Shown piece after piece: positions 1 through 50,298 of a DNA stretch of 64,000 nt (positions are counted from its first letter, which is position 1; every line of letters begins with the position of its first letter). The position numbers were made by a program, and so were the translations under genes. The DNA is from an uncultured bacterium (GTDB lineage: Bacteria; Oederibacteriota; Oederibacteriia; Oederibacteriales; Oederibacteriaceae). The stretch spans positions 2,432,001-2,496,000 of the forward strand of contig OZ218778.1 in NCBI GenBank assembly GCA_965112635.1, given 5' to 3'. Below the pieces are notes generated by a model that had not been told where the DNA came from, made no database searches, and saw only the letters and a list, made by a program, of their open reading frames with translations.

Positions 1-313
1 CCTGCGGGCTCTCTTCGACGACCTGTTCGCTGCTCAAGTCCACGACGGAAGAAAGGAACCGGTCCAAGTCATTGGGGTCTGTTTTGGCGTGCCTGGGCTC
101 GATGACCGCCCATACGCCTTTTTCCTTTTTACAAACGATATGGGTGCCCGCCTTGTCCAGGCTGAAACGGTCCACCTGGTCCTTGGTCAGGTTGGTGATG
201 ACCTTGGTCGTTGTTTCCGCCGGGGGAGCTGGTTTTTTGCGCTCAAAAACAAAGTAATAACCTAAAAAAAGCGCGAAAACGGCCAGGATAATCAGGGTAT
301 TTTTGAATTTCAT
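1..313 (-). CDS. DUF4340-like protein associated with the Gld-like ABC system (partial, runs off the window start)
   Basis: ATG at 313, 7 bp downstream of the GldG-like gene. My translation reads MKFKNTLIILAVFALFLGYYFVFERKK...VWAVIEPRHAKTDPNDLDRFLSSV. The N-terminal TM anchor and position match the usual fourth gene of gldAFG-like operons. Confidence 0.7.
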   Translation of the reverse strand, partial: MKFKNTLIILAVFALFLGYYFVFERKKPAPPAETTTKVITNLTKDQVDRFSLDKAGTHIVCKKEKGVWAVIEPRHAKTDPNDLDRFLSSVVDLSSEQVVEESPQ

Positions 314-320
314 GCTGGGT

Positions 321-27144: not shown

Positions 27145-28518
27145 TTGCCCATCTTTACCCAGATCATAGAGCTTTTAAGGTCCGACCCTACTTTTGTCAT
27201 TTACATGCTGACCCTAGCGGTCCTCTTCCTGCTAGGGACCGTTTTCTTCATCTTTTATGTTTTTATACAACCTATCCGCCAACTGTTTGAAAGGGCTAAG
27301 GGCGTCCAAAAAAACCTTTCCGACACTGAAAAAAACCTCCAAACCCAGGACGAGATAAAATTCATCACGCAGACCTTCCATCTTTTGGAAGAGGACTTGA
27401 AAAAAAAGGACATAGAGTTACAGAAGCTTTATGAAAAAGAAAGGGAACGTGCCGAATCCCTGGAGACCTACACCCAGCACCTCCTGCAAAACCTCAACAG
27501 CGGGCTGCTGTTCTTTGACCCCCAGCACCGCCTCAAGCTTCTCAACCCTGCCGCAGCCACCCTGCTCAACCTGACCCAGAAAAAAACGAGAGGCATGACC
27601 TGCGAAAAGCTTTTTGGCCCATCCAGCCGCTGGGTAACCCTGTTAAAGCAAGCCCTGCAAGAACGCAAGCTCGTTTTCCAGGAGGAGTTCCTGCAGGAGA
27701 ACGCCTCCCGCGAACCCAGCTGGCTCAGGGCCAGCTCTTCCCTGGTCTATGACCGGGCCAAGAAGATCACGGGTTGCACTTTCCTTTTCAATGACGTGAC
27801 CGCCTTCAAAAAAATGTCCGAAGAAATTGAACGCCAGAAAAAACTCGCGGCAATGGGAGAGATGGTGGCCGGAGTCGCCCACGAGATCAGGAACCCGCTG
27901 GCCACCCTCAAAGGGTTCGCCACCATGCTCCGTAACAAACTAGAGCCCGGGGACACCCGTCACAAACTGGCGCAGGACATCATCCAGGAGACCGAGCTCC
28001 TCAATAAGATCGTCACGGACTTCCTGGACTTTGCCCGTCCAGAACAGACCAAAGCCTCCCCGGTGGACCTGGCCGCCACCCTCAAGGAAGTGTACGACTC
28101 GGTCCGCAAACAGAAGAAAAAAACAAAGATCACCTTTGCCTGCCAGATCGCCAAGAACCTTCCCCCGGTCATGGCGGATGGCGCCAGGCTGAGGCAGGTG
28201 TTCTATAATGTCTTGCTCAACGCAGTGGAATCCATGCCCGAAGGCGGCGCTTTTAAACTTCGCGCATTTTCTTCGGCTCCTGACAAGGCGGTGGTGGTCG
28301 AGGTCGAGGACCAGGGCAAGGGCATCCTGCCGGAGGATCTGGATAAAATTTTCAATCCCTTTTTCAGCACTAAACTGCAAGGCACAGGCCTTGGCCTCGC
28401 GATTGTCCATCGCATAATGACCCAGCACAATGGTAGGATAGAGGTGCAAAGCAAGGTTGGCAAAGGCTCTATTTTCAGGCTTATCTTCCCGGCCAAGGAG
28501 AACGCGAAAAATGCCTAG
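27145..28518 (+). CDS. PAS-domain sensor histidine kinase (PilS/AtoS-like)
   Basis: One TM, coiled coil and PAS domain; H-box AGVAHEIRNPL, N-box QVFYNVLLNA, DQGKGI, FNPFFSTK and GTGLGL. Confidence 0.92.
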   Translation: MPIFTQIIELLRSDPTFVIYMLTLAVLFLLGTVFFIFYVFIQPIRQLFERAKGVQKNLSDTEKNLQTQDEIKFITQTFHLLEEDLKKKDIELQKLYEKERERAESLETYTQHLLQNLNSGLLFFDPQHRLKLLNPAAATLLNLTQKKTRGMTCEKLFGPSSRWVTLLKQALQERKLVFQEEFLQENASREPSWLRASSSLVYDRAKKITGCTFLFNDVTAFKKMSEEIERQKKLAAMGEMVAGVAHEIRNPLATLKGFATMLRNKLEPGDTRHKLAQDIIQETELLNKIVTDFLDFARPEQTKASPVDLAATLKEVYDSVRKQKKKTKITFACQIAKNLPPVMADGARLRQVFYNVLLNAVESMPEGGAFKLRAFSSAPDKAVVVEVEDQGKGILPEDLDKIFNPFFSTKLQGTGLGLAIVHRIMTQHNGRIEVQSKVGKGSIFRLIFPAKENAKNA

Positions 28519-29842
28519 GATATTGGTGGTCGAGGACAAGGAAAGCATGCTCAAAATGCTGCGCCAGCTTCTGGAAGAAGCTGGCCATGAGGTGGAAACG
28601 GCCACCAGCGCCGAGCAGGCCATGGATAAGCTGGAAACCGGCTCTTTCCCCGTGGTCATCACGGACCTGAAATTACCTAAAAAAAGCGGCCTTGACGTCC
28701 TTAGTAGTGCCAAAAAACGCAACCCTCATACCCAGGTCATCCTCCTGAGCGCCTACGGGACCGTGGAGACCGCTGTTGAGGCCATGAAACACGGGGCTTT
28801 TGACTTCCTGTCCAAGCCCTTTGACAACGAGCACCTCCTGCTGTTGGTCCAACGGGCCATGGAGTTTTCCGTCTTGCAGCAGGAAAACATCGCCCTACGC
28901 CAAAGTTTTAAGGAGTCAGCCAGGGTTCCCGAGCTGGTTGGCCAAGCGCCAGTGTTCCTAAAAGCCATCGAGCTGGCCAAAAAAGTAGCACCCAGCGACA
29001 CCACAGTGCTCTTGACCGGCGAGAGCGGCACCGGCAAGGAGCTTTTTGCCAAGCTTATCCACTCCCTGGGCCCCACCGCGGAAGGGCCGTTCGTGGCCGT
29101 ATCCTGCGCTTCCCTGTCCGAGGGTGTCCTGGAAAGCGAGCTCTTTGGTCACGAAAAAGGCTCGTTCACTGGCGCAACCAACCGCCGTCAGGGTCGTTTT
29201 GAGCTGGCCAAAGGAGGGACTCTTTTCCTGGACGAGATCGGTGACGTAAACCCCAATGTCCAGGTCAAGCTGCTCCGGGTCATCCAGGAAAAAAAGTTTG
29301 AGAGGGTCGGAGGCACGGAAACCATCACGGCCCAATTCCGGCTCATCGCCGCGACCAACCACGACCTGCTGGCTTCCAGCCGCGATAAAAAATTCAGGGA
29401 AGACCTGTACTATCGACTGTCGGTTTTTCCCATCCACCTTCCCTTGCTCCGGAACCGCCAGGAAGACATCCCCCTCTTGGCTGAACACTTCTTGAAACTT
29501 TTCCGTTCCCACTCTCCCAAAAAGATCTCTGGATTCAGCAAAGACGCCCAGGCCCTCCTGCAAAAATACCCCTGGCCTGGAAATGTCCGGGAACTGCAAA
29601 ATGTCATTGAGCGGGCCATGATCCTGTGCCCCGGCACGACCCTGACCTCCGCTGACTTTTCTTTCCTGGAATCCCAGCCCGCGTCCCCAGCCAGGCTCAA
29701 AGATCTGGGCAAGAACGCCAAACTAGAGGCGGAAAAAAGCAAAATTCTGGACGTGCTCAGAGAAGTTGGGGGCAATAAATCCAAGGCAGCCAAAAAGCTG
29801 GGCATCAGCTACAAAACCCTTCTCAGCCGGTTAAAACCCTGA
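28511..29842 (+). CDS. sigma54-dependent response regulator (PilR/NtrC-like)
   Basis: REC domain, GESGTGKE, ESELFGHEKGSFTGA, FLDEIG, WPGNVRELQN and a Fis-type HTH; start set at ATG 28511. Confidence 0.94.
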   Translation: MPRILVVEDKESMLKMLRQLLEEAGHEVETATSAEQAMDKLETGSFPVVITDLKLPKKSGLDVLSSAKKRNPHTQVILLSAYGTVETAVEAMKHGAFDFLSKPFDNEHLLLLVQRAMEFSVLQQENIALRQSFKESARVPELVGQAPVFLKAIELAKKVAPSDTTVLLTGESGTGKELFAKLIHSLGPTAEGPFVAVSCASLSEGVLESELFGHEKGSFTGATNRRQGRFELAKGGTLFLDEIGDVNPNVQVKLLRVIQEKKFERVGGTETITAQFRLIAATNHDLLASSRDKKFREDLYYRLSVFPIHLPLLRNRQEDIPLLAEHFLKLFRSHSPKKISGFSKDAQALLQKYPWPGNVRELQNVIERAMILCPGTTLTSADFSFLESQPASPARLKDLGKNAKLEAEKSKILDVLREVGGNKSKAAKKLGISYKTLLSRLKP

Positions 29843-29968: not shown

Positions 29969-29986
29969 TGGGCATGAAAAATGCTA
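29969..29986 (+). promoter_or_regulatory. sigma54 (-24/-12) promoter of the minor-pilin operon
   Basis: TGGGCATGAAAAATGCT gives exact GG-N10-GC spacing (GG 29971-72, GC 29983-84), about 50 bp before ATG 30033 and directly downstream of a sigma54 activator gene. Confidence 0.75.
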
Positions 29987-30032: not shown

Positions 30033-32726
30033 ATGAAACGACCTACCTATTTAAAACAGAAAGCGGGCGGCGAGCTTGGCCAAACCCTGGCTGAACTGCT
30101 GATAGGCATCACGATCTTTATGACCATGGCCGCCATGACCGCGGTGACCCTTCAAAAGGCCCTGGAGGGCAGTCTCCGCGGGAACAAGCGCATCATTGCC
30201 GACGAACTGGCCCACGAACGGGTGGAAGAATGGAAAGCCATTCCTTTTGACTCCATCGAGCCCCAGATGAACCTGCTGATATTCAACCCGCAATTCAGCT
30301 CCCTGACCGGCCTCATCACCAGCGTTACCATCACTCCGCTGGTGGTCAATGGACAGGATAATTTGAGGGAGTATTTTGGGAGCGGCTGGCTATCCTCGCC
30401 CACCCCGGTCCCTCCCTATGCCATGAGCGTCACCTACACCGCCACTTACCCGTCCATGCCCCTTTCGTGCCCGGCTGGTTATGCCGCGGCCAGCAACTTC
30501 CCCTCGCCTGCCCTGACCCCGGGCAGCAAGATCAACTACTGGTACAGCGGCCCCACAGCGACGGCCGGAACGCCGGGGACCATCTCTCTCACCGTCACGG
30601 GCCCTCCCGGCGGCTTTGAAGGGCTTCTTCAGGTCTACATGTTTGACGTGGAACGATACGACCGCCAGCAGGACCTTTACATCAATGACCTTTTGCAGCA
30701 ATCCTACCTGCCCTGGAACCTCTATTACTATCAGCCCAACACTGGGACCGCGGCCACCTTGCAGGGAGCGCTCTTTACCAAACTGCTTTCCGGCAACGAC
30801 ACGGTCAACGGCTCTTTCAACATCACCATCAAACAGACCGGCACCCCCAACTGGCTGGTCCAGACCATAGACGACGGCACCTATATGGCCAATCAGTGGC
30901 AGGGCACCGATGTTTCTTCGGGAACGGTCACCGTGACCAACGAAGGCCCGTTTACCGACAACAGCATCCAACCCCTCTACTTCGAAAACTTTGAAGGCAA
31001 CAGCTGGGCCTCGACCCAATTTTCAAAAGGAGTTAGCGGCTACATCACCCCAACCGCTATTTATGGGTCCTATTCGCTGGGAGGAGCGACGGGATCATCG
31101 AACAGTTCTTTCTTCCCCACAACCATCACCAGCACGGTGGGCACGGGCACCTGGTTCAATGCCAATACTTATTATTCTATTGACTTCGTCTACGAGTTTT
31201 ACGGCGGCACTTACAACGCCGGCGAAGCTCTATATTTCTACCTCTACAGCCCTACGGGCGGGTCAGCTTCCCGGGTGGGCACGACCGTGCTCAAACCCAA
31301 CACGGACAGCGAATCCCCCAAGCCGTCCATAAAAAACGTCACCCTGACTACTGGGCCCTATGGGGATTACCAGGCGTATTTCCTGTTGGTCACCAAAACA
31401 GCCCAGGTTTTGATAGACGACTTTTCCATCAGGCAGGCCACCTCAGCCAGCATCCAGCCCTCCTCCAATGGGACAGACGACATGATGAACAGAGTGGTCA
31501 TCGGCAAAAAATTAAAGCTGGATTACACGATCACCGGAGGCTACAAATACTGCTATGTTCGCATCGCCGACCCCTATTCCAGTCCTGTTATCATCCCTTA
31601 TGGCACCTTCCTGGAGTATGACATATATATCCCTTATAGTAACAGTGGGGGAACGGATAACGTCCAGTTTACCGGAGGCATAGACCTTTTTGACCTGAGC
31701 GGCGGCGGCAATAACCAGAGCAACGCTTTACGTGACGCCAGTCCTTACCTATGGGACCAGAATCACGTCCCTATCCACCCCTCTACGGACCTGGAAGGAT
31801 ACGCCAAAGGCAAATGGTACCACCGCATTATTCCCTTGACCGACGAATACGGCCCAGGCAATCCCACCCAGGATTTTACCGGCCAGAGTATAAGCTGGCT
31901 GTGCACGGCCGTGGATGGCAGCGTGGCCGGCACCAACGGCGGATACACTTCTTACTTCAAGGACATCAAGCTCACAGACGGCCAGGGAGGCGACATCGTC
32001 AACCTTTTCACTCCCCAGGGTTCGGGGCAGACTTCGGACGCCAATATCCCCGCCACTGGCAGCACTACGGCCGACAGCAACAGCCACGGCTGGTGGAAAG
32101 ACAACCCGCCGGACGCCATGGGCACCGTGACCCTGGTCGGCTCGCACCCCGCCTCAGCCAGCATGACCCTCACCTATGACACCAGCCAGGACTTTGGCAA
32201 TTTCTATGCTTGCGACGTATTTCTCCGGAAAGGCACCAATGTTACGCTGACCTTGAGCGGCAGCGGCAGCACCGCCACGGTCCCCACCTCGGGAACAGCC
32301 CTGCAGGACAGCTGGGTCACGGTCACCACCACGGCCACCACCGCTGATTTTGCGACCGGCGAAAACATCACCCTGACCTTCGGCAACCTAAGCGCCTCCA
32401 GTTGGAACCTCCAGAACTTCAACTTCTTCGTGGACCAGCTCAGGGTCGGCCGTAATCCCGGCAACCCGGGCAATCCCAACTGCGTTCTCTCCCTTATTGA
32501 CCTCTCCGTCATGGGCAATAGCAACGACCCCTACAGCTCCGCAGAGCCATTGGTCCCCTCGGATACGTACTGGAACGCCCTGGGCGGCACCCACCCGGGC
32601 TACCGCCTGAAAACCATGATCTCGGCCACAAACACGACTCCGCCCGGCTACAATGTAACCGTTGAGGTTTATGACGACAAAACCCAGGTCAAACTCGCTT
32701 CAGATACAGACTCTGTCTCCAGATAG
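30033..32726 (+). CDS. Giant PilV/GspI-like type IV minor pilin (897 aa) with a large beta-rich insertion
   Basis: Class III signal G/QTLAELLIGITIFMTMAAMTAV with E at +5, helix A..LA.ERVEEWKAIPFDSI, and C-terminal strands YNVTVEVY. Confidence 0.75.
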   Translation: MKRPTYLKQKAGGELGQTLAELLIGITIFMTMAAMTAVTLQKALEGSLRGNKRIIADELAHERVEEWKAIPFDSIEPQMNLLIFNPQFSSLTGLITSVTITPLVVNGQDNLREYFGSGWLSSPTPVPPYAMSVTYTATYPSMPLSCPAGYAAASNFPSPALTPGSKINYWYSGPTATAGTPGTISLTVTGPPGGFEGLLQVYMFDVERYDRQQDLYINDLLQQSYLPWNLYYYQPNTGTAATLQGALFTKLLSGNDTVNGSFNITIKQTGTPNWLVQTIDDGTYMANQWQGTDVSSGTVTVTNEGPFTDNSIQPLYFENFEGNSWASTQFSKGVSGYITPTAIYGSYSLGGATGSSNSSFFPTTITSTVGTGTWFNANTYYSIDFVYEFYGGTYNAGEALYFYLYSPTGGSASRVGTTVLKPNTDSESPKPSIKNVTLTTGPYGDYQAYFLLVTKTAQVLIDDFSIRQATSASIQPSSNGTDDMMNRVVIGKKLKLDYTITGGYKYCYVRIADPYSSPVIIPYGTFLEYDIYIPYSNSGGTDNVQFTGGIDLFDLSGGGNNQSNALRDASPYLWDQNHVPIHPSTDLEGYAKGKWYHRIIPLTDEYGPGNPTQDFTGQSISWLCTAVDGSVAGTNGGYTSYFKDIKLTDGQGGDIVNLFTPQGSGQTSDANIPATGSTTADSNSHGWWKDNPPDAMGTVTLVGSHPASASMTLTYDTSQDFGNFYACDVFLRKGTNVTLTLSGSGSTATVPTSGTALQDSWVTVTTTATTADFATGENITLTFGNLSASSWNLQNFNFFVDQLRVGRNPGNPGNPNCVLSLIDLSVMGNSNDPYSSAEPLVPSDTYWNALGGTHPGYRLKTMISATNTTPPGYNVTVEVYDDKTQVKLASDTDSVSR

Positions 32727-32734
32727 GACATGAT

Positions 32735-33451
32735 ATGAACAAATCGGGCAAGTTCATTTCAAGCAGGTTCCGGAGAGGCTGGAGCCAAAAAGGATACACT
32801 TTAACCGAAGTGGTCATGGCGGCCGCGATCATGGGCATGGCCATGGGCGGAGTTTACATGTTCCTCCGTTTTGTTTTCGTGGCTTTTGACAAGGGGCAAA
32901 GCGACATGCTGGCCAATGAGGTGGCTGAGGTCAGCATGTCGGAAATGACCCGGATGATCCGGCAGGCCACCAGCATCACCTTCCCGGCCCCCTCTTTTGC
33001 GCCCACCGCCTTACCCACCCCGGCTCCCGGGCCGCATTATCAGGAGATTTGTTTTAAGGTGCCCAGCCTGACGATCCCCCAGGACTCTGCTTACGACGAC
33101 CAGATCATCTACCGCCTGGTCAAAGTAAGCAGCGGCCGCTACCTGCTCTACCAGTACATCGATCCTTCTCCCGTGACTGCCACCCCCATTCCCATCACCA
33201 ACCAGATGGACCAGTTCCGCAAGCTTTGGACCACCAATCCCTACAACGCCATCAACAGCACCCAAACGGACATCCTCAACGCGTACAACAACCCCAATGT
33301 TTCCTTTGACGACATCACATTTCTTTACGATCCGCCGACCACGGGATCCCCTTTGGTCGGCATCGCCCTGAGCGTTTCAGTCAAAGGTTTTGGGGGGATC
33401 AAGCATCATGCTTTTTTACAAACAGCGGTCGTTCCGTTGCACCTAAAGTGA
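32735..33451 (+). CDS. PilW/GspJ-like type IV minor pilin
   Basis: Class III signal QKG/YTLTEVVMAAAIMGMAM; MTRMIRQA; QIIYRL; terminal LQTAVVPLH. Confidence 0.8.
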   Translation: MNKSGKFISSRFRRGWSQKGYTLTEVVMAAAIMGMAMGGVYMFLRFVFVAFDKGQSDMLANEVAEVSMSEMTRMIRQATSITFPAPSFAPTALPTPAPGPHYQEICFKVPSLTIPQDSAYDDQIIYRLVKVSSGRYLLYQYIDPSPVTATPIPITNQMDQFRKLWTTNPYNAINSTQTDILNAYNNPNVSFDDITFLYDPPTTGSPLVGIALSVSVKGFGGIKHHAFLQTAVVPLHLK

Positions 33452-33484
33452 CCCCGGAACCGGCCAGTCCAAAAGGAGGCAGCT

Positions 33485-36400
33485 ATGAAAAATTTCGGAC
33501 GAAAAAATAAGATCCGGATGGGCTCGTCTTTTCGCCGTCTCCTTGCCTATATCCGGAGTGAAAAAGGCCAGGGGTTCCTGGGCTTTATCTTCGTCGTGGC
33601 CCTTTTGGTGCTGATCGTGACCACCTCCCTGCTCAACCTGGTGGGAGTGCACCTCAGCTTCACCACTCACCAGCGGGCCATGAAACAGGCCATCGGCATG
33701 GCCAACAGCGGCGTGGACCAGGCTCTCGCGGACATCCGCACCAACGTGTACGGTCTTCCGGCCTACCCAAGCACCATCAGCAGAGCCTACGCTTCCAACC
33801 TGACCGTGACCGTGAGCCAGCTGGTCACCGGCTCGCCGGCGGTCCCGCAAACCGATTTTGAGGGGAACAATCTATACCAGATAGACTCCTACTCTTTTGG
33901 CGTGACCACGCTCGCCGCCGTGGGCAACACCCAGATAGGCCGTCACACCAGGTCCACGATCGCCCTGGTGAATCCCCTGACCTTTAACCGGCTGGTCAAC
34001 TCCAACGAGACCATCGGGATTTCAGGGGGGGGGACCACTATTTTTGACGGATTCCTGCATGTCAACGGCGTCCTCACCTTTAGCGGCGGCACCATCTATT
34101 GCAACGCCAAATACCTGAACCAGAACGACCCCACCTCCCTCAATCCCAACTACTATTCCGACTACGGCGTGGGCGCCGCTCAAACCATCGTTATAGACCC
34201 GTCAACAAGTCCGGCAACAAAGGTTTATTCCCAGGACTTCAATGACATTTTCGGCATGAATTTGACCGCTTGTTCCAGCTCCAGCCCCAGTTTCAACATC
34301 ATGTCCAATATTGCCTATCCCTTTGGCACCAAATACCACAACGGCGCTTCTTCGCCTCCTGATGGGGCCTGGATGGACGGCAGCCGCGGCAGCAGCTTTG
34401 TGACCTTCTCTGTCCTCAATTACGCCTACTATTCGGGCCTGACCACCATTGCCCTGGACCAGGCCAGCCTGCCGGCCTATGTCAACCAGATAGATTCCAG
34501 GAACGACGGGAATATTGATTCTGTGGATATCAATTTGTCCCTGCTCGGCACAGGCGCTCAGGGAGACATCACCGCCGGGCACTTCAGCTCTTATATGAAC
34601 CAAACCAACTATCCCAACGGCATGCTGGTCATGGTCATCGGCCAGGCCGCGGTCCATGGCAAGATACCTTGGCTGAGCGGACTCAATAACAAAAAAATAA
34701 CCATCCTGGCCACCAAGGGCATCAACATCCTCGGGGACACCCTTTATTCCGGGGATAACTACACCACCATCGGGACCAGCGAAAACAGCACGACCCTGGA
34801 GGATGGCACAGGGCCTGCCAGCAACTGGTCGCCGTCCACCATGAACACTTTCCAAAGCAGCATGTCTCCGCCCAGCACCCTGCCCACCCCCAATTTCAGC
34901 AATCCTAGCGGCGATGCGGTCCGTAACACTACGGGTTATTCCCTGAAATTGCTCGGTCATATCCTGGCCGGCAGCGGCACCGTCAACTGTTTCATCCCGA
35001 TTAAAAATTATCCCATTCCCCCGGTCATCCCCTCGCCCTCGCAGGCCGGGAACAAGATCTTCCTGTCCTATGACGTGCAGCAGCCCATGCATGTATACCA
35101 GTCCAATCCCTGCGCCGATTACCCCCACTTTAACACCAACCAAAACTATATCGGCGCCGTGGTGTTGACCGGCGGGACCGTGGGCACCACCCGCGGCATC
35201 GGCCTGACCGACCTACAAGGGGGCATCACCGCCGACCCCAACGCCCAAGTGACCGGCTCTGCCTGGGCCACCTGGTACCACCGGGATATTGACATCACCA
35301 GCCTGGCCGGCAAAACTTTCCAAAATGTCACGCTGGGCTATGAAATGCCCAATCCCTCCAATTCCAGCGCCTCTGACTTTGAACTGTGCTATGCCAATAT
35401 CAGGATCACGGAACTATACGGGAGCTCCGCCTTCCCCAATGTCATCCGGCTGGACCTTTTTTCCGACGACAATATAGGCACTTCCACCATTACTACTTTT
35501 GACCAGACCACTTATGTGCCCACCAGCACTCCCTTTATCCCCACTAACACTTTCACGACAACAAGGACTTTTACCAACACCCCTACGGGCAGCAAAACTC
35601 CCACTAACACACAGACCGCTACCAATACCCCTACCTGCAGCGGAGGACATACCTGTACCTTTACCCAAACCTTTACCAACACGGGCACCAACACCAGTAC
35701 CGGCACTCCCACCAGCACGCCAACTTCCGTGGCCCTGTATGCCGTGCCCACACCCAACCAGACTCCGGGAAACAATATCGTGGCCCTGTCCACCGACATC
35801 CTGGAACAAGACGGCAGCTGGGTAGGTCCCATGGGCGCCTATAACGCCTATTTTGACGAGACCTTCAATTTCACCTCTGCCCGTGAGGAGACCTACGTGG
35901 ACAATAACTGCCTGCTAGCCCACATCCTCATGTCCCACGATGACACGGACTGTAGCAATACGACTTTGTGCGGAGGGAACACCAACGGGACGCATATTTT
36001 TGATTACGAGGATCCTTATCTGCAGATGGTCATCCCCCAGAGGGACTACTATGGGGGCACCCACTATGTGACAGAAAAATTTGGTCTGCCCACTAGCTGG
36101 CCGAGTTCGATCGGGCACGTGGGCTACAACGCGGACACCAGCTCCAACTTCGGGTGGACCACCCTGAGTTATCCTTTAAGCGACGCTACTCTGGACAACC
36201 TGATCAGCTGGGGTAATATCCAGGTCGGTTTTGAAGCGACCAATCTGGAAAAATTCCACTGGAAAAACTTCTATGTGAGCCAGATCCAGCTGGTCCCGGG
36301 CTCCTACCCGCCCTATCGCCAGGCCCTTACCCCGACGATCGTGGGTTCTTTCACCTATTCCCAGCCGTTCACCAATCCTTCCAACGACTGCCTTTTGCTT

Positions 36401-36727
36401 TTGTCCGGAGGCAACATCACCCTGACCACGGACCGTCGCAATGACGCGCGCTACTACCAAAATCCTTACGACTGCAAGGTGGACGCTTACCTTTACACTT
36501 CGGCCACAGGCTCTTACTTCACCACGATCGGTTCCTACAGCGGGATCCCCCAGTTGACCGTTTACGGAGGCCTGGGCGAGCAATATCAGACCATGGGAAC
36601 ATCCTCTCCGCAGGCCATCTTTAATAAGATCCGCTGGGTCTATGACCGGGGCCTGGTCAACAACGCCCCGCCTAATTTGGTCCCCAAAGGGATCATTGTG
36701 TACTCCTACCAGGAACTTTTACAGTAG
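33485..36727 (+). CDS. Giant PilX/GspK-like minor pilin (1080 aa) with inserted domains and a Thr-rich linker
   Basis: EKG/QGFLGFIFVVALLVLIV without E5, as in PilX; QAIGMANSGVDQA; YQIDSY; LHVNG; terminal YDRGLVNNAPP. Confidence 0.75.
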   Translation: MKNFGRKNKIRMGSSFRRLLAYIRSEKGQGFLGFIFVVALLVLIVTTSLLNLVGVHLSFTTHQRAMKQAIGMANSGVDQALADIRTNVYGLPAYPSTISRAYASNLTVTVSQLVTGSPAVPQTDFEGNNLYQIDSYSFGVTTLAAVGNTQIGRHTRSTIALVNPLTFNRLVNSNETIGISGGGTTIFDGFLHVNGVLTFSGGTIYCNAKYLNQNDPTSLNPNYYSDYGVGAAQTIVIDPSTSPATKVYSQDFNDIFGMNLTACSSSSPSFNIMSNIAYPFGTKYHNGASSPPDGAWMDGSRGSSFVTFSVLNYAYYSGLTTIALDQASLPAYVNQIDSRNDGNIDSVDINLSLLGTGAQGDITAGHFSSYMNQTNYPNGMLVMVIGQAAVHGKIPWLSGLNNKKITILATKGINILGDTLYSGDNYTTIGTSENSTTLEDGTGPASNWSPSTMNTFQSSMSPPSTLPTPNFSNPSGDAVRNTTGYSLKLLGHILAGSGTVNCFIPIKNYPIPPVIPSPSQAGNKIFLSYDVQQPMHVYQSNPCADYPHFNTNQNYIGAVVLTGGTVGTTRGIGLTDLQGGITADPNAQVTGSAWATWYHRDIDITSLAGKTFQNVTLGYEMPNPSNSSASDFELCYANIRITELYGSSAFPNVIRLDLFSDDNIGTSTITTFDQTTYVPTSTPFIPTNTFTTTRTFTNTPTGSKTPTNTQTATNTPTCSGGHTCTFTQTFTNTGTNTSTGTPTSTPTSVALYAVPTPNQTPGNNIVALSTDILEQDGSWVGPMGAYNAYFDETFNFTSAREETYVDNNCLLAHILMSHDDTDCSNTTLCGGNTNGTHIFDYEDPYLQMVIPQRDYYGGTHYVTEKFGLPTSWPSSIGHVGYNADTSSNFGWTTLSYPLSDATLDNLISWGNIQVGFEATNLEKFHWKNFYVSQIQLVPGSYPPYRQALTPTIVGSFTYSQPFTNPSNDCLLLLSGGNITLTTDRRNDARYYQNPYDCKVDAYLYTSATGSYFTTIGSYSGIPQLTVYGGLGEQYQTMGTSSPQAIFNKIRWVYDRGLVNNAPPNLVPKGIIVYSYQELLQ

Positions 36728-36900: not shown

Positions 36901-39900
36901 GTGAGAAAAAGCATGCGGAAGTTCTTATTTATAATAGCTCTAGCGATTTTTATTGCTTGGCTGGTTTATTTACCAGCGCAAGCCTCCACCACGACGGTGT
37001 ATCTGCAAAGGGCCAACGCCGGCGTGCCCACCACCAATGCCGTTCCGGGCGTCCTGACCACCACAGCTGGGGCTGTCACGGTTTATGACAATTTTCCTGC
37101 CGCCAATTTTCCCAGCATCTACACCTATGACTACTTTAACTATTTTTATGGCGATGGCAGCGGGCTCGGCCCCCCTCCTGCCGCCAATGTGATCAGCTAT
37201 GTGATGGGCGGGTTCACGGGTTCCCTCGATGGCTCCAAACAACCTTCTGACCTGAATCTCTATCTGTATTGGGAAAATATGACTGGCGGGAGCCTTTGGG
37301 CCGAGATGGAGGTCCAAGTCATTTTCCTGTTCAACGGGACTGCCGGCGGACCAACCCTGACCCTGACCTATGATCGCCATGACTGGCCCAGCGTCTCAGG
37401 GTACAGCGCGGGAAACCCGGTCAAATATAACCAGAGCAGCCCCCGCGTGGAATCTGCCAACGGTTATGTCAACGGCCAATCCATGATCAACGGCAAGGTG
37501 CTCCTCAACCTTTTCAATACAGGCGGGGACGAGCAGGGCCGTATCAAAGTGGACGCCCCTCTGGTCGGCACTCCCAGTTACATCGTCATCCCCTACGGCG
37601 CCAGCAGCAGCGAGGTTTCCACGGCCATCAGCCCTAATGTCGCGCCTCTCAACTCCCCAGCGGTCTTGACCTACTCTATCTTGAACAACCCCGGCGGGCT
37701 GGGATCTGTCGCCGCGGTCAACATCACGGTGCCTGGAGGGATCACCCTGCCCGGCGGTAACTTCTATAGTATTAATTCGGCCAACAGCGTCAAAGGCACC
37801 GCCAGCATCCTGCAGGCCGCCGACAGCTCTCATGACGGTGTTGTCCAGGTCGTGTATGACGGGGTCAATAACCTGTCAGTCACTGCCCAGGACACTGTGA
37901 CCATTTCCGTAAACACCCCGACCAGCCTTTTCATACCTCCGGACGCCTCCTGGAGGTCAATCTTTAAGTATTCGGGAGGTCTTTTCACCGATACTTCGGA
38001 GGTGTATCCGGGATCTACGGATGTCAGAGTGGTTGGGCTCTCCTCGGCGACGGACAGCATCACCACATCATTCTCACCGCCCTATGACCACAAGATCACC
38101 ACGGGGTCCTTGGGTCAGACCCTGACCTACACCATCACCAACAGCCCCAGCTCGCCGGAAATGCTGGCTAGCGCCATAGTCACCATTCCGGGCGGGGTAG
38201 CCGGAGAATTCTTCTCAGGCATCACCATCACAGGCACAAGCGCCAACGTATCCGTGACCTCCATGATCTATCCCTCGGCTTCCTTACCAGGGTCTATTTC
38301 CCTGCTCTTTCCCGGAGGCCTGACCGCTACGGCCGGCAGCAGCAGTGCTACGGTCAGCCTGCTTGTCTCCGGTCCGACCGGCGTGACGACCACGACCTGG
38401 ACCACCCTGTTCAGCACTGTAGCCTACCAGTACCTTACGGCAACCGGAGGCACCAACGAACAGATCAACGCGGTCACTCCTCCCACGGCTACAGCCAGCA
38501 TCAGCCCCACGCAGCTGGATATCGGCCAGAACAGCATCAAATTGATCTATTCCATCGATATGGTCTCGGCGCCTAAGGCTGTCACCCAGGTCGCCGTGAC
38601 CGTGCCCAGCAGCTTTACGGTGACCGGCGTGACCAGCCATTTGGCCACCCTGGTCACCACCCCCGTAGCCAGCGGCGGCACCATCACCCTGGGTTATGCT
38701 GGCCTGACCGCCGGCCAGTGGGATTACCTCACCATCACGGCCAACACCGGCAGCTCCTACTCTGTGGATAACTGGTCAGCGGTCATGGCCAACCCTGACC
38801 TGGTCCAGGTCCCCTTGGGCGGTTCCACGAGCACCTGGACCTTCCAGCTTCCTCCGGAGGGTTTCGTTTCGCCCAGCACCATGGTCCCCGGCCAGGCCGC
38901 CAGCCCCTACCTCTTCCAAATGATCAACGGGGGCACCTCCGGCCAGGACGACGCCTATATGAAAACCGTCATCACCATCCCGGCAGCCATAAGCGTCACG
39001 GGCGTGACCGGCCCTACCGGCACCAAGACCTGGATTAGCTCTTGGACGCCGGGCTACAACACCATCACCCTGACCGCCAATACGGGGCAGGGGTTGGATA
39101 CCCCGGATTTCGAGGACATCACCATCACGGCCTCCACCAGCATTTCCGGACAGATGTATTGCGGCTTTTCCGCTGTGGGAGCCTACGGAGGGACCTCAAC
39201 CGCGGTCGCGACCTTTGGCCACAGCTTGACCGTGACTTCGCTGACCCTTTCGGCCCTGGGCATCATCACCCCGCGCGTGGTGGATGTGGGCCAGACCAGG
39301 ACATTTGTCTACACTTTTACGAACACAGGGGGCGGCGCCCCGCTAGGCGATGACATCCAGAGCGCGCAGTTCACTTTCCCGGCCGGCTGGGCCATTGTCA
39401 GCGCTTCCGGCGTCACGGTTTCTCCCGCGACCGGCGTGAAAACATGGAACGCGCCGGTTGTCGTCGGCCTGACCGTAACCATGACCGCCCAAGGCTCGGC
39501 CAACTACCTGGGTAACGCCGAATCCGTAAGCGTCAGCGTCGTGGTCACCGCGCCTTTGGCAGCGGCAACGCCGGTCGCCATCTCCGCCAACCTCACGGGC
39601 AGGGTCATACCCAGCGCCACCCCCGTGGAAGCGGTTCCCGGGAACGGCGACATGAAAGTCAAAGCGGCCGCAGTCAGCAGCCAGGGGTTTATCACGCCCA
39701 ACACGGCCCTGGTGTCGCAGTCCCGCAGCTTCCTGCTCACTTTCAGTGATACGGGCAGCGGCACCACGGGCGACAACCTGACCTCGTTCCTCATCAGCCT
39801 GCCTCCCAATTACACCATCACAGCTGTGAACCCCGTGCTGGCTTCCGCTGACTCGTGGACTATCGCCTCTAACAGCTCTTCGGTGACCCTGACCGCCACG

Positions 39901-42408
39901 GGAAACGGCATACCCCCCAACGGCTATGTTTATGTGACCATCACGGCCACGACCCCGGCAGCCAGTTCCAGCGGTCTTTACACCAGTTGGGGAGTACGGA
40001 CCACGGGCCAAGCCGGCGCGACCAATGCCGTCACTGGCTGGCAGCCCAATGACCTGGGAGTACGCGTCAGTCCGTTTGGTTCTCAGGGATGGGTCATTCC
40101 GCCGGCCGTGGATATCAACCAGACCCAGTATTTTACGGCCACCTTTAGCAATACCGGGGGTGCCAACGCCGACAATATCAACTCATACATATTCAGCGTC
40201 CCGGCCGGATTTACCATCATGGGCGCGGTCAATATGACCGCCACTTCGACTTCAGGGCCCTGGAGCAGTTATTACAACGGCAGCGGCCAGGATATTACCC
40301 TGACCGCCATCGGCGCTCCCTCTATACCTAACATGGGATCGGTAAGTCTGGGGATCACCCTGACCGCCCAGGCTACGGCGGCTCCCTTCAACTGGACAGC
40401 CCTGGCCGTAAGCGCCTTTAGCGCGGATGGGTCCACTCCGGTCAGCGGTCTAGGTGCGGTCGGTATCGAAAACCTGAGCGCGATCGCCTCTGTTGCTCCG
40501 CAAAATCTGGGTTTGAATTTATACAGCGTTCTCGCCTATACCATCACCAATACCGGCGGTGCAGGCGGAGACACTATTAACAACGTATTCATCAGCCTGC
40601 CTCCTGGTTACCCAGCTTCGGGGATGCAGGTAACTAATATCACAGACAGCCGCAGCGGGACTTCCTGGTTGGGTCCGGTTGGCGGTTTCAGCAGCTTGAC
40701 GGTTTCGGCCTCAGCGCCCGCTTCAGCCCTGAGCAACGGGGACATCCTGACTGTCTATCTCGGAGTAACCGCTTCGGCCGCGTCAGCAGCGCCAGCCCTG
40801 TGGCCGGTCAATGTGACCGGCTCCCTAGGCGGCACGGTTGCGGCCAATCCGCTTTCTCCCGGCAGCATGTCCGTAGGGGTATTTGACCCGCCGCTGGTAG
40901 AGGCGGTCCTGACCGTGCCCGGCGGAGGCAACACTATCTTATGCAATCAGACAGGGACGCAACTTGACTACCAAATAAGGAACATGTCAGACACAGCTAA
41001 AACCACCGAACCGCTGCAAAGCGTTGTGATTAATGTTCCCTCTAATTTTACTAATATTTCAGCGGTAAGTTTGACCGGATCAGCCAGCGTGAACGGGAAT
41101 GTGCTGACCATTACCTATGGTCCCGGTGCCCTCACCCCCACCGGCACGGACCTGGTCTCTATTTATAGCGATATCGGGACGGTTGTCAGCAGTACCAACT
41201 ACTACTTCAGCGTGACCGCCACGACCACGGCTTACGGCCTTTCTGATAACGAGATGCCTTTGTTCGGCAGTTTGACCATTACGGCCCTGACCGCGGCCCA
41301 AGCACCGACCAGGGCACTGGCCCTTGTCCTGCCCAACGCGGTGGGAGTATCCAGAACAGCGACCTTTGCCTATGCTTTGAACAACCTTGGATTACCCGGC
41401 CCTTCTGGCGTCTCCATCACCGCGGCCCATATATTTGTACCCCACGACTACCAATTCCAAGCTACCAATATCGCCGCTTTCCCCGTCACTACCGCCGCCA
41501 TCTCGGTCCCCAGTAACGGGGACAACGGCAAGACCAAACGGGTGGATATCACTTTTGCCAACGGCGGATTACCCATATCCCAGACCTGTATCTTTACCTT
41601 TACCAACATCACCACTCCGGCTACGGCCCAGTCACTGACCTGGACCGCGACCGTGGATACCGGCACGGTCTCCGGCATCAACTCCTCGCCGGCTTCAGCC
41701 GACGCCCTCACGGTCTATGTGGTCGGGCCTCCGCAGTTCACGGCCAAAATACTGCAGACCGTCAATGCGACCTTGAACTCAACGGCCACGATCCTCTATC
41801 AGGTCAAAAACCCGGCCGCCAGCCGCGACACCCTGACCGGGGTCAATATAGCCATCCCCTCGGGCTGGACGGCCCTGTCCGCCCGGACCGACAGCGGCAC
41901 GGTCACTGTCCCTGGCGGAGGCGGCAGCGTCATCATCGGCGGCTTGACCGTGACCAGCACCCTTACCCAGGATGCCTACGTCAACGTCACCATCCAGGCC
42001 ACCTCTCCGGCTTCTGGCACGGTCTTTACCTTTAACGCGAGGGTCAACACCGGTCTCTACCCCGCTGCCAACACGCTCATCATCAACGCTGGAAGTTCTG
42101 ACGTCCAGATCACCCTGACCACCCCGGTCGCCAGCATGGCGGTCAACAAAAATTTCATCAATCCCCTGCATGGAGACCTGGCCACGGTGACCTACTCGGT
42201 AGCGGCCGACGCTGATGTCTACGTCTGTCTCTACAGTGTGCACGGCGACCTGGTTAAAGTATTGGACAAGGGGCATAAGGCAATGGGCACCTACATGGTC
42301 ACCTGGGACGGGAAAGCCAGCGGTAGCAACGTGGCCAGCGGCGTGTATATCATCTTTGTCCAGGTCGGGTCGTTCAAAGACAACCGCAAGCTGATCGTGA
42401 TCAAGTAA
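36901..42408 (+). CDS. Large secreted Ig-like repeat protein with a C-terminal FlgD-Ig/T9SS-type sorting domain
   Basis: Signal peptide; about 11 degenerate repeats of roughly 125-140 aa; C-terminus NFINP..VCLYSVHGDLVKVL..WDGK..VASGVYIIFV..RKLIVIK. Confidence 0.8.
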   Translation: MRKSMRKFLFIIALAIFIAWLVYLPAQASTTTVYLQRANAGVPTTNAVPGVLTTTAGAVTVYDNFPAANFPSIYTYDYFNYFYGDGSGLGPPPAANVISYVMGGFTGSLDGSKQPSDLNLYLYWENMTGGSLWAEMEVQVIFLFNGTAGGPTLTLTYDRHDWPSVSGYSAGNPVKYNQSSPRVESANGYVNGQSMINGKVLLNLFNTGGDEQGRIKVDAPLVGTPSYIVIPYGASSSEVSTAISPNVAPLNSPAVLTYSILNNPGGLGSVAAVNITVPGGITLPGGNFYSINSANSVKGTASILQAADSSHDGVVQVVYDGVNNLSVTAQDTVTISVNTPTSLFIPPDASWRSIFKYSGGLFTDTSEVYPGSTDVRVVGLSSATDSITTSFSPPYDHKITTGSLGQTLTYTITNSPSSPEMLASAIVTIPGGVAGEFFSGITITGTSANVSVTSMIYPSASLPGSISLLFPGGLTATAGSSSATVSLLVSGPTGVTTTTWTTLFSTVAYQYLTATGGTNEQINAVTPPTATASISPTQLDIGQNSIKLIYSIDMVSAPKAVTQVAVTVPSSFTVTGVTSHLATLVTTPVASGGTITLGYAGLTAGQWDYLTITANTGSSYSVDNWSAVMANPDLVQVPLGGSTSTWTFQLPPEGFVSPSTMVPGQAASPYLFQMINGGTSGQDDAYMKTVITIPAAISVTGVTGPTGTKTWISSWTPGYNTITLTANTGQGLDTPDFEDITITASTSISGQMYCGFSAVGAYGGTSTAVATFGHSLTVTSLTLSALGIITPRVVDVGQTRTFVYTFTNTGGGAPLGDDIQSAQFTFPAGWAIVSASGVTVSPATGVKTWNAPVVVGLTVTMTAQGSANYLGNAESVSVSVVVTAPLAAATPVAISANLTGRVIPSATPVEAVPGNGDMKVKAAAVSSQGFITPNTALVSQSRSFLLTFSDTGSGTTGDNLTSFLISLPPNYTITAVNPVLASADSWTIASNSSSVTLTATGNGIPPNGYVYVTITATTPAASSSGLYTSWGVRTTGQAGATNAVTGWQPNDLGVRVSPFGSQGWVIPPAVDINQTQYFTATFSNTGGANADNINSYIFSVPAGFTIMGAVNMTATSTSGPWSSYYNGSGQDITLTAIGAPSIPNMGSVSLGITLTAQATAAPFNWTALAVSAFSADGSTPVSGLGAVGIENLSAIASVAPQNLGLNLYSVLAYTITNTGGAGGDTINNVFISLPPGYPASGMQVTNITDSRSGTSWLGPVGGFSSLTVSASAPASALSNGDILTVYLGVTASAASAAPALWPVNVTGSLGGTVAANPLSPGSMSVGVFDPPLVEAVLTVPGGGNTILCNQTGTQLDYQIRNMSDTAKTTEPLQSVVINVPSNFTNISAVSLTGSASVNGNVLTITYGPGALTPTGTDLVSIYSDIGTVVSSTNYYFSVTATTTAYGLSDNEMPLFGSLTITALTAAQAPTRALALVLPNAVGVSRTATFAYALNNLGLPGPSGVSITAAHIFVPHDYQFQATNIAAFPVTTAAISVPSNGDNGKTKRVDITFANGGLPISQTCIFTFTNITTPATAQSLTWTATVDTGTVSGINSSPASADALTVYVVGPPQFTAKILQTVNATLNSTATILYQVKNPAASRDTLTGVNIAIPSGWTALSARTDSGTVTVPGGGGSVIIGGLTVTSTLTQDAYVNVTIQATSPASGTVFTFNARVNTGLYPAANTLIINAGSSDVQITLTTPVASMAVNKNFINPLHGDLATVTYSVAADADVYVCLYSVHGDLVKVLDKGHKAMGTYMVTWDGKASGSNVASGVYIIFVQVGSFKDNRKLIVIK

Positions 42409-42445: not shown

Positions 42446-44320
42446 ATGACTTTTAGGAAAGCATTGGCGCTCACGGCTTATGCCGTTTTTTTATTCCCCT
42501 CTTTGATCGGGGCAAGCGGCGGACCGACTTCAGGCGCGGATTTTCTGAGCATGGATGAAGGTGGCCGGGCCATCGGCATGGCAGGCGCCTACACGGCCAT
42601 CGCCACGGATTCTTTGGCTACCTACTGGAACCCGGCCGGCCTGGCCCAGATCCCCTGGTATGAAGTGACCCTCCAGCACAACCAGTGGATCCAAGATTTG
42701 AGTTATGAGTATGTGTCCTTTGGCATGCCCCTGTGGCGCTACGGCGGCCTGGGCATCAGCGCCACCATGCTGTATATGCCCAGCTTTAACAACGACCCGG
42801 CCAACCTCACGGACGCCAATGCCCAGGATATCGCGGGTTCCTTGAGCTACGGCCAGAGGATATTTAACCCCATTGAGTTCGGCTTTACCGCCAAATATAT
42901 CCAGCGCACCCTCTTGAATTACACCGCCACGGCCTATGCCGGCGATGTGGGCTTGCATGCCGACCTGTTCGACAATTTCCAGTTCGGCGCCGCGGTGCAG
43001 AATATCGGCACCCCGGTCACCTTTATCAGCGAAGCCGACCCCCTGCCTCTCACCTACCGGGCCGGCCTGGCTTTTTACCTGGTTTCCGAAGACAACGACC
43101 TGACCATTGACGTGGACGGCGTGGAACCTGCCAACACCAATACCTTTTACGGCAGTGTGGGCGGCGAATTGACCCTTTACAACCAGATGGCCCTGCGCGG
43201 CGGCTATCATTTTAACCGGGATATCAACACCTACGCCGTGGGCGTGGGCCTCAAAGAACCAACCCTGATCTTGGATGTATTTTATGACCCCCTGGTCAAT
43301 CTGGGAGACAGTTATGGCGCCAGTCTGACCATCCGTTTTGGCGAGGGCGTGGAGTACATGAAAAAAGGCCTCCTGCTCCCTCCCAGCGGCCTGGTGGCCG
43401 AGGCCGGCAAGGAAAAACTCTTTCTCCATTGGGACCAGGCCAAATACCGCGAGTTCTGGGGATACAACGTTTACTATGCCGTGGCTTTTGGCAAAACTTT
43501 CCACAGGATCAACAAAGTCCGCCTGATGGACAATGACCTCATCATCAAAAAAGTCCCGGCAGAGGAAAAGTTCATCTACGCGGTCTCGGTCCTGATCGGT
43601 GAGAATGGCGAGAATGAAAGCGACCTGTCCATGCCTGTCCGGGTCATCGCCGAAAAGCTCCCTCCTGCCAAACCCACGGAAGTCTCAGTGGTTCCCATGG
43701 ATGGCGGCGCCAGGATCCAGTGGAAACCCAGCCAGGAGCCGGGCGTGACCGGCTACAATGTTTATGTGAAACGCATGCTCGGCGAAACACCCCAAAAACT
43801 CAACATTGACATGCTCCGCGACCACTTCTTCATCGCGCAGGGACTCAAGAACGATACCCCTTATTATTTCAGCGTCACCACGGTAAACGGCAACCACAAG
43901 CCTCCCCTGGAAAGCGATTTCTCCGAGGATGTATCCGCGGTTCCCGCTTCCATTTACGCCACCAAGACCAGCACGCCCACGATCACCAGGACTTCCACCC
44001 CTACCCTGACCCCCACTCCAGAACCGCCCAAGGTCAGCGCTCCTCAGGGGCTTGATATCACGCAGGACAAAACAGCCATTATCCTGAGCTGGAATGGAAA
44101 TCCGCCTACTGACGCCATCCTCGGATACTTTGTCTACTACAGCAACAAACCGGACTCCAATTTCTACCGCATCAACTCCTCGCCTCTCAACCAGGTCAGC
44201 TTGCGTCTCAAAAAGGGCCACCTCCAACAGGGGAAAACCTATTATTATGCCATTACGGCCGTGGGCCTGGACGGCAGGGAGAGCAACAAATCAGCAATAG
44301 TAGGCGTAGTGATCAGATAG
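42446..44320 (+). CDS. PorV/PorQ (UPF0164)-family beta-barrel fused to three fibronectin type III domains
   Basis: ADFLSMDEGGRAIGMAGAYTAIA.D..ATYWNPAGLA; barrel ends at YGASLTIRFG; then three W..GYNVY..Y.V..V....ES units. Confidence 0.82.
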   Translation: MTFRKALALTAYAVFLFPSLIGASGGPTSGADFLSMDEGGRAIGMAGAYTAIATDSLATYWNPAGLAQIPWYEVTLQHNQWIQDLSYEYVSFGMPLWRYGGLGISATMLYMPSFNNDPANLTDANAQDIAGSLSYGQRIFNPIEFGFTAKYIQRTLLNYTATAYAGDVGLHADLFDNFQFGAAVQNIGTPVTFISEADPLPLTYRAGLAFYLVSEDNDLTIDVDGVEPANTNTFYGSVGGELTLYNQMALRGGYHFNRDINTYAVGVGLKEPTLILDVFYDPLVNLGDSYGASLTIRFGEGVEYMKKGLLLPPSGLVAEAGKEKLFLHWDQAKYREFWGYNVYYAVAFGKTFHRINKVRLMDNDLIIKKVPAEEKFIYAVSVLIGENGENESDLSMPVRVIAEKLPPAKPTEVSVVPMDGGARIQWKPSQEPGVTGYNVYVKRMLGETPQKLNIDMLRDHFFIAQGLKNDTPYYFSVTTVNGNHKPPLESDFSEDVSAVPASIYATKTSTPTITRTSTPTLTPTPEPPKVSAPQGLDITQDKTAIILSWNGNPPTDAILGYFVYYSNKPDSNFYRINSSPLNQVSLRLKKGHLQQGKTYYYAITAVGLDGRESNKSAIVGVVIR

Positions 44321-50106: not shown

Positions 50107-50298
50107 TATATATAGCTCCCTATAAAAGCCTGATAATTGCAAAACACTTTTTTGCCATACCTGCCCTCTATTGGCAATAGGAATTTTTTGAAAAAATCTG
50201 ACCCTATGATATTAACCGAGCACCCTATCAAAGGCTTCTCATTTTTGTACCAATTTGTACCAATATGTATCCTGCTTGTGGAATAGCGACACCAAAAC

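Follow-up and report, generated by a model that had tools for sequence, protein, structure and literature searches.

A minor-pilin trio with two giant split subunits in a Firestonebacteria-type genome: an extreme version of the ComZ and cyanobacterial PilX design

From what a pilus is started and to what it adheres is determined by its minor pilins. The locus considered here lies in a window of 64,000 nucleotides (contig OZ218778.1, positions 2,432,001 to 2,496,000), which is part of the complete 2.88-Mb genome (labelled G000) of an uncultured Firestonebacteria-type bacterium, from a candidate phylum without cultured members. It comprises three adjacent pilin-like genes, two of which encode giants of 897 and 1080 amino acids (aa). 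Rather than a new system, the locus is an extreme case of a design with precedents in Thermus ComZ and cyanobacterial PilX. On balance, we favour the reading that the products of the trio prime a type IV filament and form its tip, with adhesive modules of their own.

ComZ and PilA2 are competence-pilus tip pilins of Thermus thermophilus (PDB 6QVI, 6QVF; PMC6561018, 2019). ComZ is encoded beside a GspI-like pilin, binds DNA and has been proposed to sit at the tip; PilA2 has a small subdomain between the helix and the sheet, in the position of the alpha-beta loop (PMC6561018). Cyanobacterial PilX proteins, e.g., the 799-aa PilX-EPS of Synechocystis (PilA12), contain a solenoid with extra lineage-specific domains, are encoded with PilV and PilW, and have been proposed to replace PilY1 as the cap and adhesin (PMC13759059, 2026). 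Modular pilins, exemplified by PilB and PilC of S. sanguinis, number more than 1,200 proteins in 264 architectures, with lectin and carbohydrate-binding modules as common cargo, and the paper describing them lists GspK and ComZ as related cases (Raynaud et al. 2021; PMC8179133).

The original prediction, made from the letters of the window, saw in this locus a pilus-tip complex with the adhesin or lectin cargo built into two of the pilins. What it observed is borne out, and its reading in part. The architecture has largely been described for the PilX-like protein (PMC6561018, PMC13759059, PMC8179133) and the giant PilV-type subunit is new; no giant GspI/PilV-type subunit is described in the ComZ, modular-pilin and cyanobacterial PilX papers considered here. 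The new elements are this subunit, an insert nested at a recurrently used hot spot, and a single adhesin-type module without a Pfam model, which the genome encodes in the two tip subunits and nowhere else. Judged by titles and the beginnings of abstracts, searches for Firestonebacteria with pili gave nothing beyond a Patescibacteria paper, and those for minor pilins with carbohydrate-binding modules gave nothing on this point.

Three genes and two split pilin folds

The three open reading frames (ORFs) are all open, intact and encoded on the plus strand: a giant GspI/PilV-like pilin at 30033..32726 (897 aa), a minor pilin in the PilW/GspJ position at 32735..33451 (238 aa), and a giant PilX/GspK/ComZ-like cap pilin at 33485..36727 (1080 aa). 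They can be regarded as real genes and not chance ORFs, because homologues of all three keep the same order in other genomes, in line with the PilV/PilW/PilX arrangement proposed originally. The class III-type N-termini proposed at the same time were also found. The 238-aa protein (KG/YTLTE) passes both Pfam N_methyl (24.6 bits, cut-off 21.2) and TIGR02532 (21.4 bits), and is 26% identical to its 212-aa relative across 220 aa. In the 897-aa protein the motif LG/QTLAE, with a leader to Gly16 and a Glu at +5 (G16/E21), is seen by eye and stays under the Pfam cut-off; its homologues of 470-726 aa pass N_methyl with 22-29 bits. The N-terminus of the 1080-aa protein is hydrophobic and lacks Glu5, which is likewise absent from PilX/GspK cap subunits.

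Word-indexed searches among proteins of near length recovered the queries alone, with length limits that left out relatives of 470 and 530 aa, and a search of the 'shorter' length class with the 897-aa protein gave nothing among 8000 candidates. When 40 other phylum genomes were searched, the core of the 1080-aa protein was matched in six (E 3e-21 to 8e-34) and all remaining matches were confined to its low-complexity Thr-rich stretch; five of the six also have a match to the N-terminus of the 897-aa protein. With a profile built from the relatives, the family was detected in 11 of 99 phylum genomes (own genome counted), at eight loci of a species-representative collection, every one titled Candidatus Firestonebacteria, and at 14 loci in metagenomes. 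Ten of 1.84 billion representative proteins were found at E <= 0.001, namely the query, five core homologues spanning 530-907 aa and four proteins matched in the Thr-rich part only.

The cassette of the relatives encodes, in order, a GFTLVE-type pilin of ~470 aa, a 212-aa pilin and a PilX-like protein of ~530 aa. The baseline family is thus large already (470 and 530 aa), which leaves only ~460 and ~535 aa as special to the genome studied here. The V-like proteins vary in length (462-477 aa, 726 aa in genome G067, at least 594 aa at metagenome locus L063, and 897 aa), and their middles in G067 and L063 are made of different beta-rich, Thr/Pro-linked domains. Homologues with common flanks and variable middles, the pattern looked for after the original prediction, exist for both giants (alignments A4 and A6, BLASTP flanks). 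Other MAFFT alignments (A1, A2, A5) put the C-termini in the wrong place, and A4 and A6, which include bridging sequences, were used instead. At L036:776-4933 a second three-gene cassette stands immediately upstream of that relative's 477/211/525 cassette and encodes a 637-aa pilin (three CarboxypepD_reg domains and an LTD), a pilin of 166 aa and a PilX-like protein of 409 aa. Alternative tip sets occur within the phylum.

The AlphaFold2 models of both whole giants were built on shallow alignments (mean pLDDT 51), with cores that are usable. In the model of the 1080-aa protein, pLDDT is mostly 60-90 in aa 30-425 and 962-1080 and below 50 across the whole insert. Its best match among 48,161 chains is ComZ (6qvi_A; Z 15.4, rmsd 10.6, 340 aligned residues, model 59..1080), which Foldseek also puts first (E 1.3e-3). 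Further matches are ice-binding-type solenoids (Z 11.8-12.9, model 162..1060), PilA of S. sanguinis (7o5y_B; Z 10.5, rmsd 2.8, 106 aligned residues, model 57..1080), GspK (Z 8.6) and XcpX (Z 6.6). As the small-pilin alignments run from residue 57 to 1080, the pilin fold is closed by the last strand, with the solenoid inserted as in ComZ. The layout comprises a pilin part (aa ~29-162 and the last strand at 1069-1078) and a beta-solenoid (aa ~163-425 and 962-1060). The motifs quoted for this protein in the original prediction are correctly placed (KGINILGDTLYSG at aa 411, 34715-34753; DCLLLLSGGNITL at aa 968, 36386; YDRGLVNNAPP at aa 1053). The gap of 540 aa seen there is not the break in the pilin fold for which it was taken: it is an insert within the solenoid, and the solenoid is the insert in the pilin fold. 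According to the model, the ~535-aa segment (34760..36367, aa 426-961) is a second insert nested in the solenoid.

Comparison with relatives places this second insert at a hot spot. A 530-aa relative aligns with the 1080-aa protein in the flanks only, at aa 16-479 (E 7e-38) and 963-1078 (E 6e-9). Alignment A4 (15 sequences of 525-1080 aa) shows a variable site between ILGDxLYSGDxY and NPxNDAIAL, which holds ~20 residues in the forms of 525-545 aa, long blocks in proteins of 757, 830 and 907 aa, and ~535 residues in the 1080-aa protein; the variable site in homologues of 620-907 aa is the same solenoid site. The junctions by which the insert is bounded, FSNPSGDAV (34895-34921) and FTNPSNDCL (36368-36394), both align to one segment of the 530-aa relative, indicating that the nine-residue junction was duplicated, and this duplication looks like a footprint of how the insert arose. 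A candidate reading of the protein as a PilX-PilY1 fusion was rejected, as its C-terminus is homologous to the C-terminus of the 530-aa relatives.

With ComZ as the top structural match of the 1080-aa protein, the cassette could be regarded as a competence-pilus tip like ComZ-PilA2, in which the solenoid subunit would be a DNA receptor and the inserts decoration. ComZ binds DNA and pairs with a GspI-like pilin bearing an alpha-beta-loop subdomain (PMC6561018), and the genome encodes ComEC. However, ComEC is nearly universal (present in 10 of 14 control genomes), there is no sequence homology to ComZ, and the extra domains are of the kind found in giant adhesins; moreover, the genome has no other minor-pilin set, so that any further pilus function must fall to the trio as well. 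We regard a competence tip as very unlikely.

In the 897-aa protein, BLASTP with a 470-aa relative (L029) likewise aligns only the flanks, aa 10-292 (E 1e-17) and 752-897 (E 4e-4). Between them is a lineage-specific expansion at 30909..32285 (aa 293-751; BLASTP flanks, alignment A6), with ~83 aa at the same place in the 470-aa relatives. Here, too, the quoted motifs were assigned to the right positions (WKAIPFDSI at aa 67, 30231-30257; GYRLKTMI at aa 856, 32598; YNVTVEVY at aa 873). About 785 multi-domain residues, in the position of the alpha-beta loop, separate the helix (aa 19-69) from three closing beta-strands (aa 857-896, 32601-32720), and the helix and these strands are the confident parts of the model. 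They match XcpV (5bw0_B; Z 7.3, rmsd 2.4 A, 80/89 residues, model 46..896) and GspI (3ci0_I; Z 6.5, 72/83 residues); Foldseek with this model against PDB returned weak and mixed rows only. We consider it probable that the helix and the C-terminal strands together form a pilin fold. The claim that the giants are split pilins has thus held up, with models that place the C-terminal strands of both in the pilin fold (ComZ at Z 15.4 for one, XcpV with 80/89 residues at 2.4 A for the other).

A module shared by the two passenger regions

No part of the passenger regions of either giant matches Pfam or NCBIfam. The region of aa 424-801 in the 897-aa protein finds matches inside proteins of 1238-3876 aa in six other genomes, and in 17 of the 98 other phylum genomes aa 480-660 of the 1080-aa protein finds matches, frequently at the same places, in proteins with open-frame lengths of 570-4260 aa. 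The beta-rich domain in question is labelled 'WYHR' after a conserved motif, and no Pfam model matches it. Copy 1 is located in the first pilin at 31527..31988 (~aa 499-652; own-genome profile search E 5.4e-15) and copy 2 in the cap-pilin insert at 34961..35425 (E 2.7e-65 in the same search, partly by construction), both on the plus strand. Direct BLASTP between the two copies is not significant (best E 0.17), and their relation emerges only via intermediate sequences: with hhalign, a profile of copy 1 and six giant-protein fragments aligns to the copy-2 region with a probability of 94.3% (E 1e-7). A profile search of the own genome found exactly two copies, one per giant pilin. Elsewhere in the phylum, 'WYHR' carriers are Thr-rich, Big_1-bearing adhesin-like giants, these traits being seen in the carriers examined (L069; Big_1 in two of seven fragments by Pfam). 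Homology and models together show the split folds of both giants, and the profile searches show the module that they share.

In the cap pilin, copy 2 is followed by a Thr-rich linker at 35450..35764 (aa 656-760, 37% Thr) and by a distal orphan domain at 35765..36367 (aa 761-961), which has no match in the 98 other phylum genomes; the protein atlas provided nothing usable for the insert of the 1080-aa protein or its distal domain. The compositions agree with the Thr/Gly/aromatic-rich character noted at the outset (first insert T 12, G 11.5 and aromatic 13%; second insert T 15.5%). The low-confidence model of the 897-aa protein gave CBM35/36/61/15/22 rows at Z 6.4-8.9, a second structure search, with VIA, gave generic jelly-roll rows only, and the atlas neighbours CBM27 and CBM_4_9 scored 0.90-0.92, a range that shuffled proteins sometimes reach. 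These jelly-roll and CBM-like fold matches and atlas neighbours are weak leads. There are only weak indications that the inserts act as lectins, one of the two kinds of cargo originally proposed.

A recent foreign origin of the inserts was considered and is unsupported, with a GC content of 0.51-0.62 throughout and no larger tandem arrays; TRF reported a single short 25-nt array in the locus, at 32318-32342 (score 43). Two DNA runs contain parts of the locus, as short contigs only, at ~3x. Several of these contigs are identical to the window, including within the insert, and no joints were seen.

The filament served and the genomic setting

The machinery expected elsewhere in the genome was found: a prepilin peptidase (Peptidase_A24, one match), PilB/PilT-type ATPases (T2SSE, 11 matches), PilC (T2SSF, four matches at two places), PilM (one strong match, beside the peptidase) and secretins (three matches). 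A type IVa-style cluster at 346-356 kb combines a secretin, PilM, the peptidase, PilC and a PilT-sized ATPase, and a second cluster at 1.98-1.99 Mb has a secretin, ATPases, T2SSF and a pilin. Of the six genomic matches to PF07963, four are pilins of ~141-143 aa and the other two are trio genes, and a motif scan agrees; the trio is the only detectable minor-pilin set. The filament served is most likely the type IVa pilus, whose machine is encoded ~2.1 Mb away.

By analogy with the GspIJK, ComZ-PilA2 and PilVWX models, the Glu5-less 1080-aa subunit would enter first and cap the filament, the 238-aa and 897-aa subunits would bundle beneath it via their N-terminal helices, and the major pilin would polymerise below the trio. 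Since the fold is completed by the extreme C-terminus in both large subunits, everything in between would project from the tip. The cap subunit carries a ComZ-type beta-solenoid, one loop of which would give rise to a 'WYHR' domain, a Thr-rich stalk and the orphan distal domain; the PilV-type subunit would display a chain of beta-sandwich domains in its alpha-beta loop, the second 'WYHR' domain included. These passenger domains may be the adhesive or ligand-binding parts, in which case the tip complex would be its own adhesin and a PilY1-type protein would be unneeded. The PilY1 C-terminal beta-propeller (PF05567) has no match in the genome, but the same search also gave 0/14 in control genomes and is not a valid negative.

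Several observations weigh against a type IV tip complex of this kind. The 897-aa protein scores 16.2 bits with N_methyl and has Gln at +1, and its pilin matches (Z 6.5-7.3) are in a middling range among many beta-sandwich and jelly-roll rows. Both whole-protein models are poor (pTM 0.51 and 0.36), with the inserts unmodelled. For the 1080-aa family no sequence similarity to ComZ or GspK was found, a profile of six relatives of 525-545 aa retrieving no pilin among all PDB sequences at E up to 10, and its likeness to ComZ, as modelled, is one of fold and architecture only. A fourth subunit, of FimU/GspH type, was not found; the secretin would need to let through tip domains of ~785 and ~900 residues; and the machinery that the cassette serves could instead be the second cluster, at 1.98-1.99 Mb. 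The complex test was made with W and X proteins of a relative, and its support is weak: the 212-aa and 530-aa proteins reached an ipSAE of 0.40, against 0.00 for the best of three controls (at least 84% of contacts agreeing between runs, partner pLDDT at least 81). The mark is reached by 116 of 157 solved complexes and by 2 of 215 mismatched pairs, but scores of 0.60 or under comprise only 18 of the 157 complexes and both of those mismatches. Unless the pair was a likely one to begin with, a weak pass of this kind is wrong more often than not, and likeness to GspJ-GspK, a solved complex, may explain this one.

Passenger regions of this size, a methylation motif that stays below threshold in the 897-aa protein and the fact that nothing indicates that such bulky tips can pass a secretin are also what would be expected if the pilin-type N-termini were only membrane anchors or export signals with no filament, as in archaeal sugar-binding proteins with class III signals. 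Against this, conserved C-terminal strands complete a pilin fold, the three-gene order is strict and has a Glu5-less cap subunit, and the partner test speaks weakly for an assembled complex. The genome would then hold a pilus machinery and major pilins without minor pilins, and we judge this explanation highly improbable.

Upstream of the trio, on the same strand, are genes for a PAS-HisKA-HATPase sensor kinase, PilS-like by position, at 27145..28518 (HATPase_c 7e-26, HisKA 7.5e-17, PAS_4 5e-10), and for a sigma-54-dependent response regulator, PilR-like by position, at 28457..29842 (Sigma54_activat 1e-66, Response_reg 1e-29, HTH_8). A homologous regulator gene precedes the cassette of G067 (449-aa sigma-54-type regulator upstream of the V-like gene, L050). 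Transcription of the trio would probably depend on the adjacent kinase and activator. A sigma-54-like -24/-12 element, GGCATGAAAAATGCT (29971..29985, plus strand), stands 48 nt before the first gene and is a lead only, since such motifs are not enriched in the window (5 observed against 6.1 expected). The genome contains rpoN. Outside the window, the matches to the Sigma54_DBD gene at G000:C1:1483980-1484457 fall in two frames that overlap, the first of which contains one TGA; this split could reflect a frameshift, a sequencing error or a recoding site.

Downstream, also on the plus strand, a secreted repeat protein of 1835 aa with a FlgD-Ig/type IX-style C-terminal domain (36901..42408) occupies the position where pilY1 stands in classical operons. 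It is followed by its presumed partner, an outer-membrane barrel of the PorV/PorQ family fused to Fn3 (42446..44320; NF033709, 137.8 bits, cut-off 90). The order of regulator, V, W, X, giant and PorV-like barrel is found in three lineages, i.e., the window, G067 and metagenome locus L063. With the giants encoded after the cassette in G067 and L063, the 1835-aa protein shares only its tail, the C-terminal ~110 aa, at 29-31% identity; the barrel and its positional counterpart in G067 are 29% identical across 610 aa. NF033709 has 37 matches in the genome, 31 of them above the cut-off, so that pairs of a giant and a barrel are very common and the neighbourhood of the cassette may be coincidental. 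PorV-like barrels are hugely expanded here without a clear type IX translocon; SprA_N has one sub-threshold match of 21 bits only. Further downstream, the minus strand of the window (45647-50142) encodes an RND efflux permease of the usual kind (NF033617, 885 bits) together with a channel of the TolC family.

The recurrence of the V-W-X, giant and barrel order in these lineages would fit a GspI/J/K-type tip of a type II secretion (T2SS) pseudopilus, which would be periplasmic and push out the 1835-aa protein, held by the PorV-like barrel. XcpV and GspI are the best small-pilin matches of the first protein, the third matches GspK with the Z of 8.6 given above, the three subunits follow the I-J-K order, and the genome has the second machinery cluster. 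On the other hand, a periplasmic piston would have little use for Thr-rich stalks or for adhesin-type domains that also occur in giant surface proteins, and the 470/212/530 cassette occurs in six other genomes with neither the giant gene nor a PorV-like neighbour. The commonness of giant and barrel pairs again allows for coincidence, and minor pilins of Thermus type IV pili likewise resemble T2SS pseudopilins (PMC6561018). We therefore consider a pseudopilus unlikely.

The conserved order and the shared module could instead mean that the pilus tip functions as one unit with the adhesin system of the cell surface and presents the same ligand-binding module as the body adhesins, which seems to us quite unlikely. 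A retracting pilus would then pass a captured substrate or surface to the PorV-anchored adhesin; alternatively, the downstream giant would be a non-pilin, PilY1-like tip partner docked via the passenger domains. If true, both a tip complex with two subunits bivalent for one module and a connection of type IV pili to PorV-type surface display would be firsts.

Comparison with known systems

The helical domain inserted in GspK has about 100-odd residues, and GspI has ~120 aa. The trio resembles GspI-GspJ-GspK and XcpV-W-X (PDB 3CI0, 5VTM, 5BW0) in its three subunits, their gene order and the fold matches, and its third subunit resembles GspK in lacking Glu5 and in having a domain inserted in the pilin sheet. 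In contrast, the inserts here are a solenoid and beta-rich domains, run to hundreds of residues and are found in two subunits.

ComZ shares with the 1080-aa protein a solenoid inserted in the pilin fold, and with the locus an adjoining GspI-like pilin with an extra subdomain. The solenoid here, however, bears a further insert of ~535 aa in three parts, and the subdomain of the GspI-like partner has grown to ~785 aa, compared with ~370 aa in the baseline family; sequence similarity to ComZ is not detectable. Cyanobacterial PilX is likened to the 1080-aa protein by architecture, i.e., a pilin fold interrupted by a beta-solenoid with extra domains, and by its PilV and PilW partners. Those sets have a FimT subunit and a small PilV (158-181 aa, table of PMC13759059), whereas in the trio, which belongs to a different phylum, the PilV-type subunit is a giant too and a fourth subunit was not found.

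With modular pilins the trio shares the use of a pilin as carrier of adhesive modules to the tip. In the defining cases of modular pilins the module is appended, by a short linker, after a complete pilin module, while in both giants it is located inside the fold, before the closing strands. The passenger domains here also lack a database signature, so that such proteins escape domain-based surveys; with trio proteins that have no domain signatures and almost no detectable relatives, surveys of domain databases will miss this class of adhesins. The locus extends the design of ComZ and cyanobacterial PilX to a candidate phylum, and shows how far the strategy of inserting into the fold can go, with passengers several times the size of the pilin in two of the three tip subunits.

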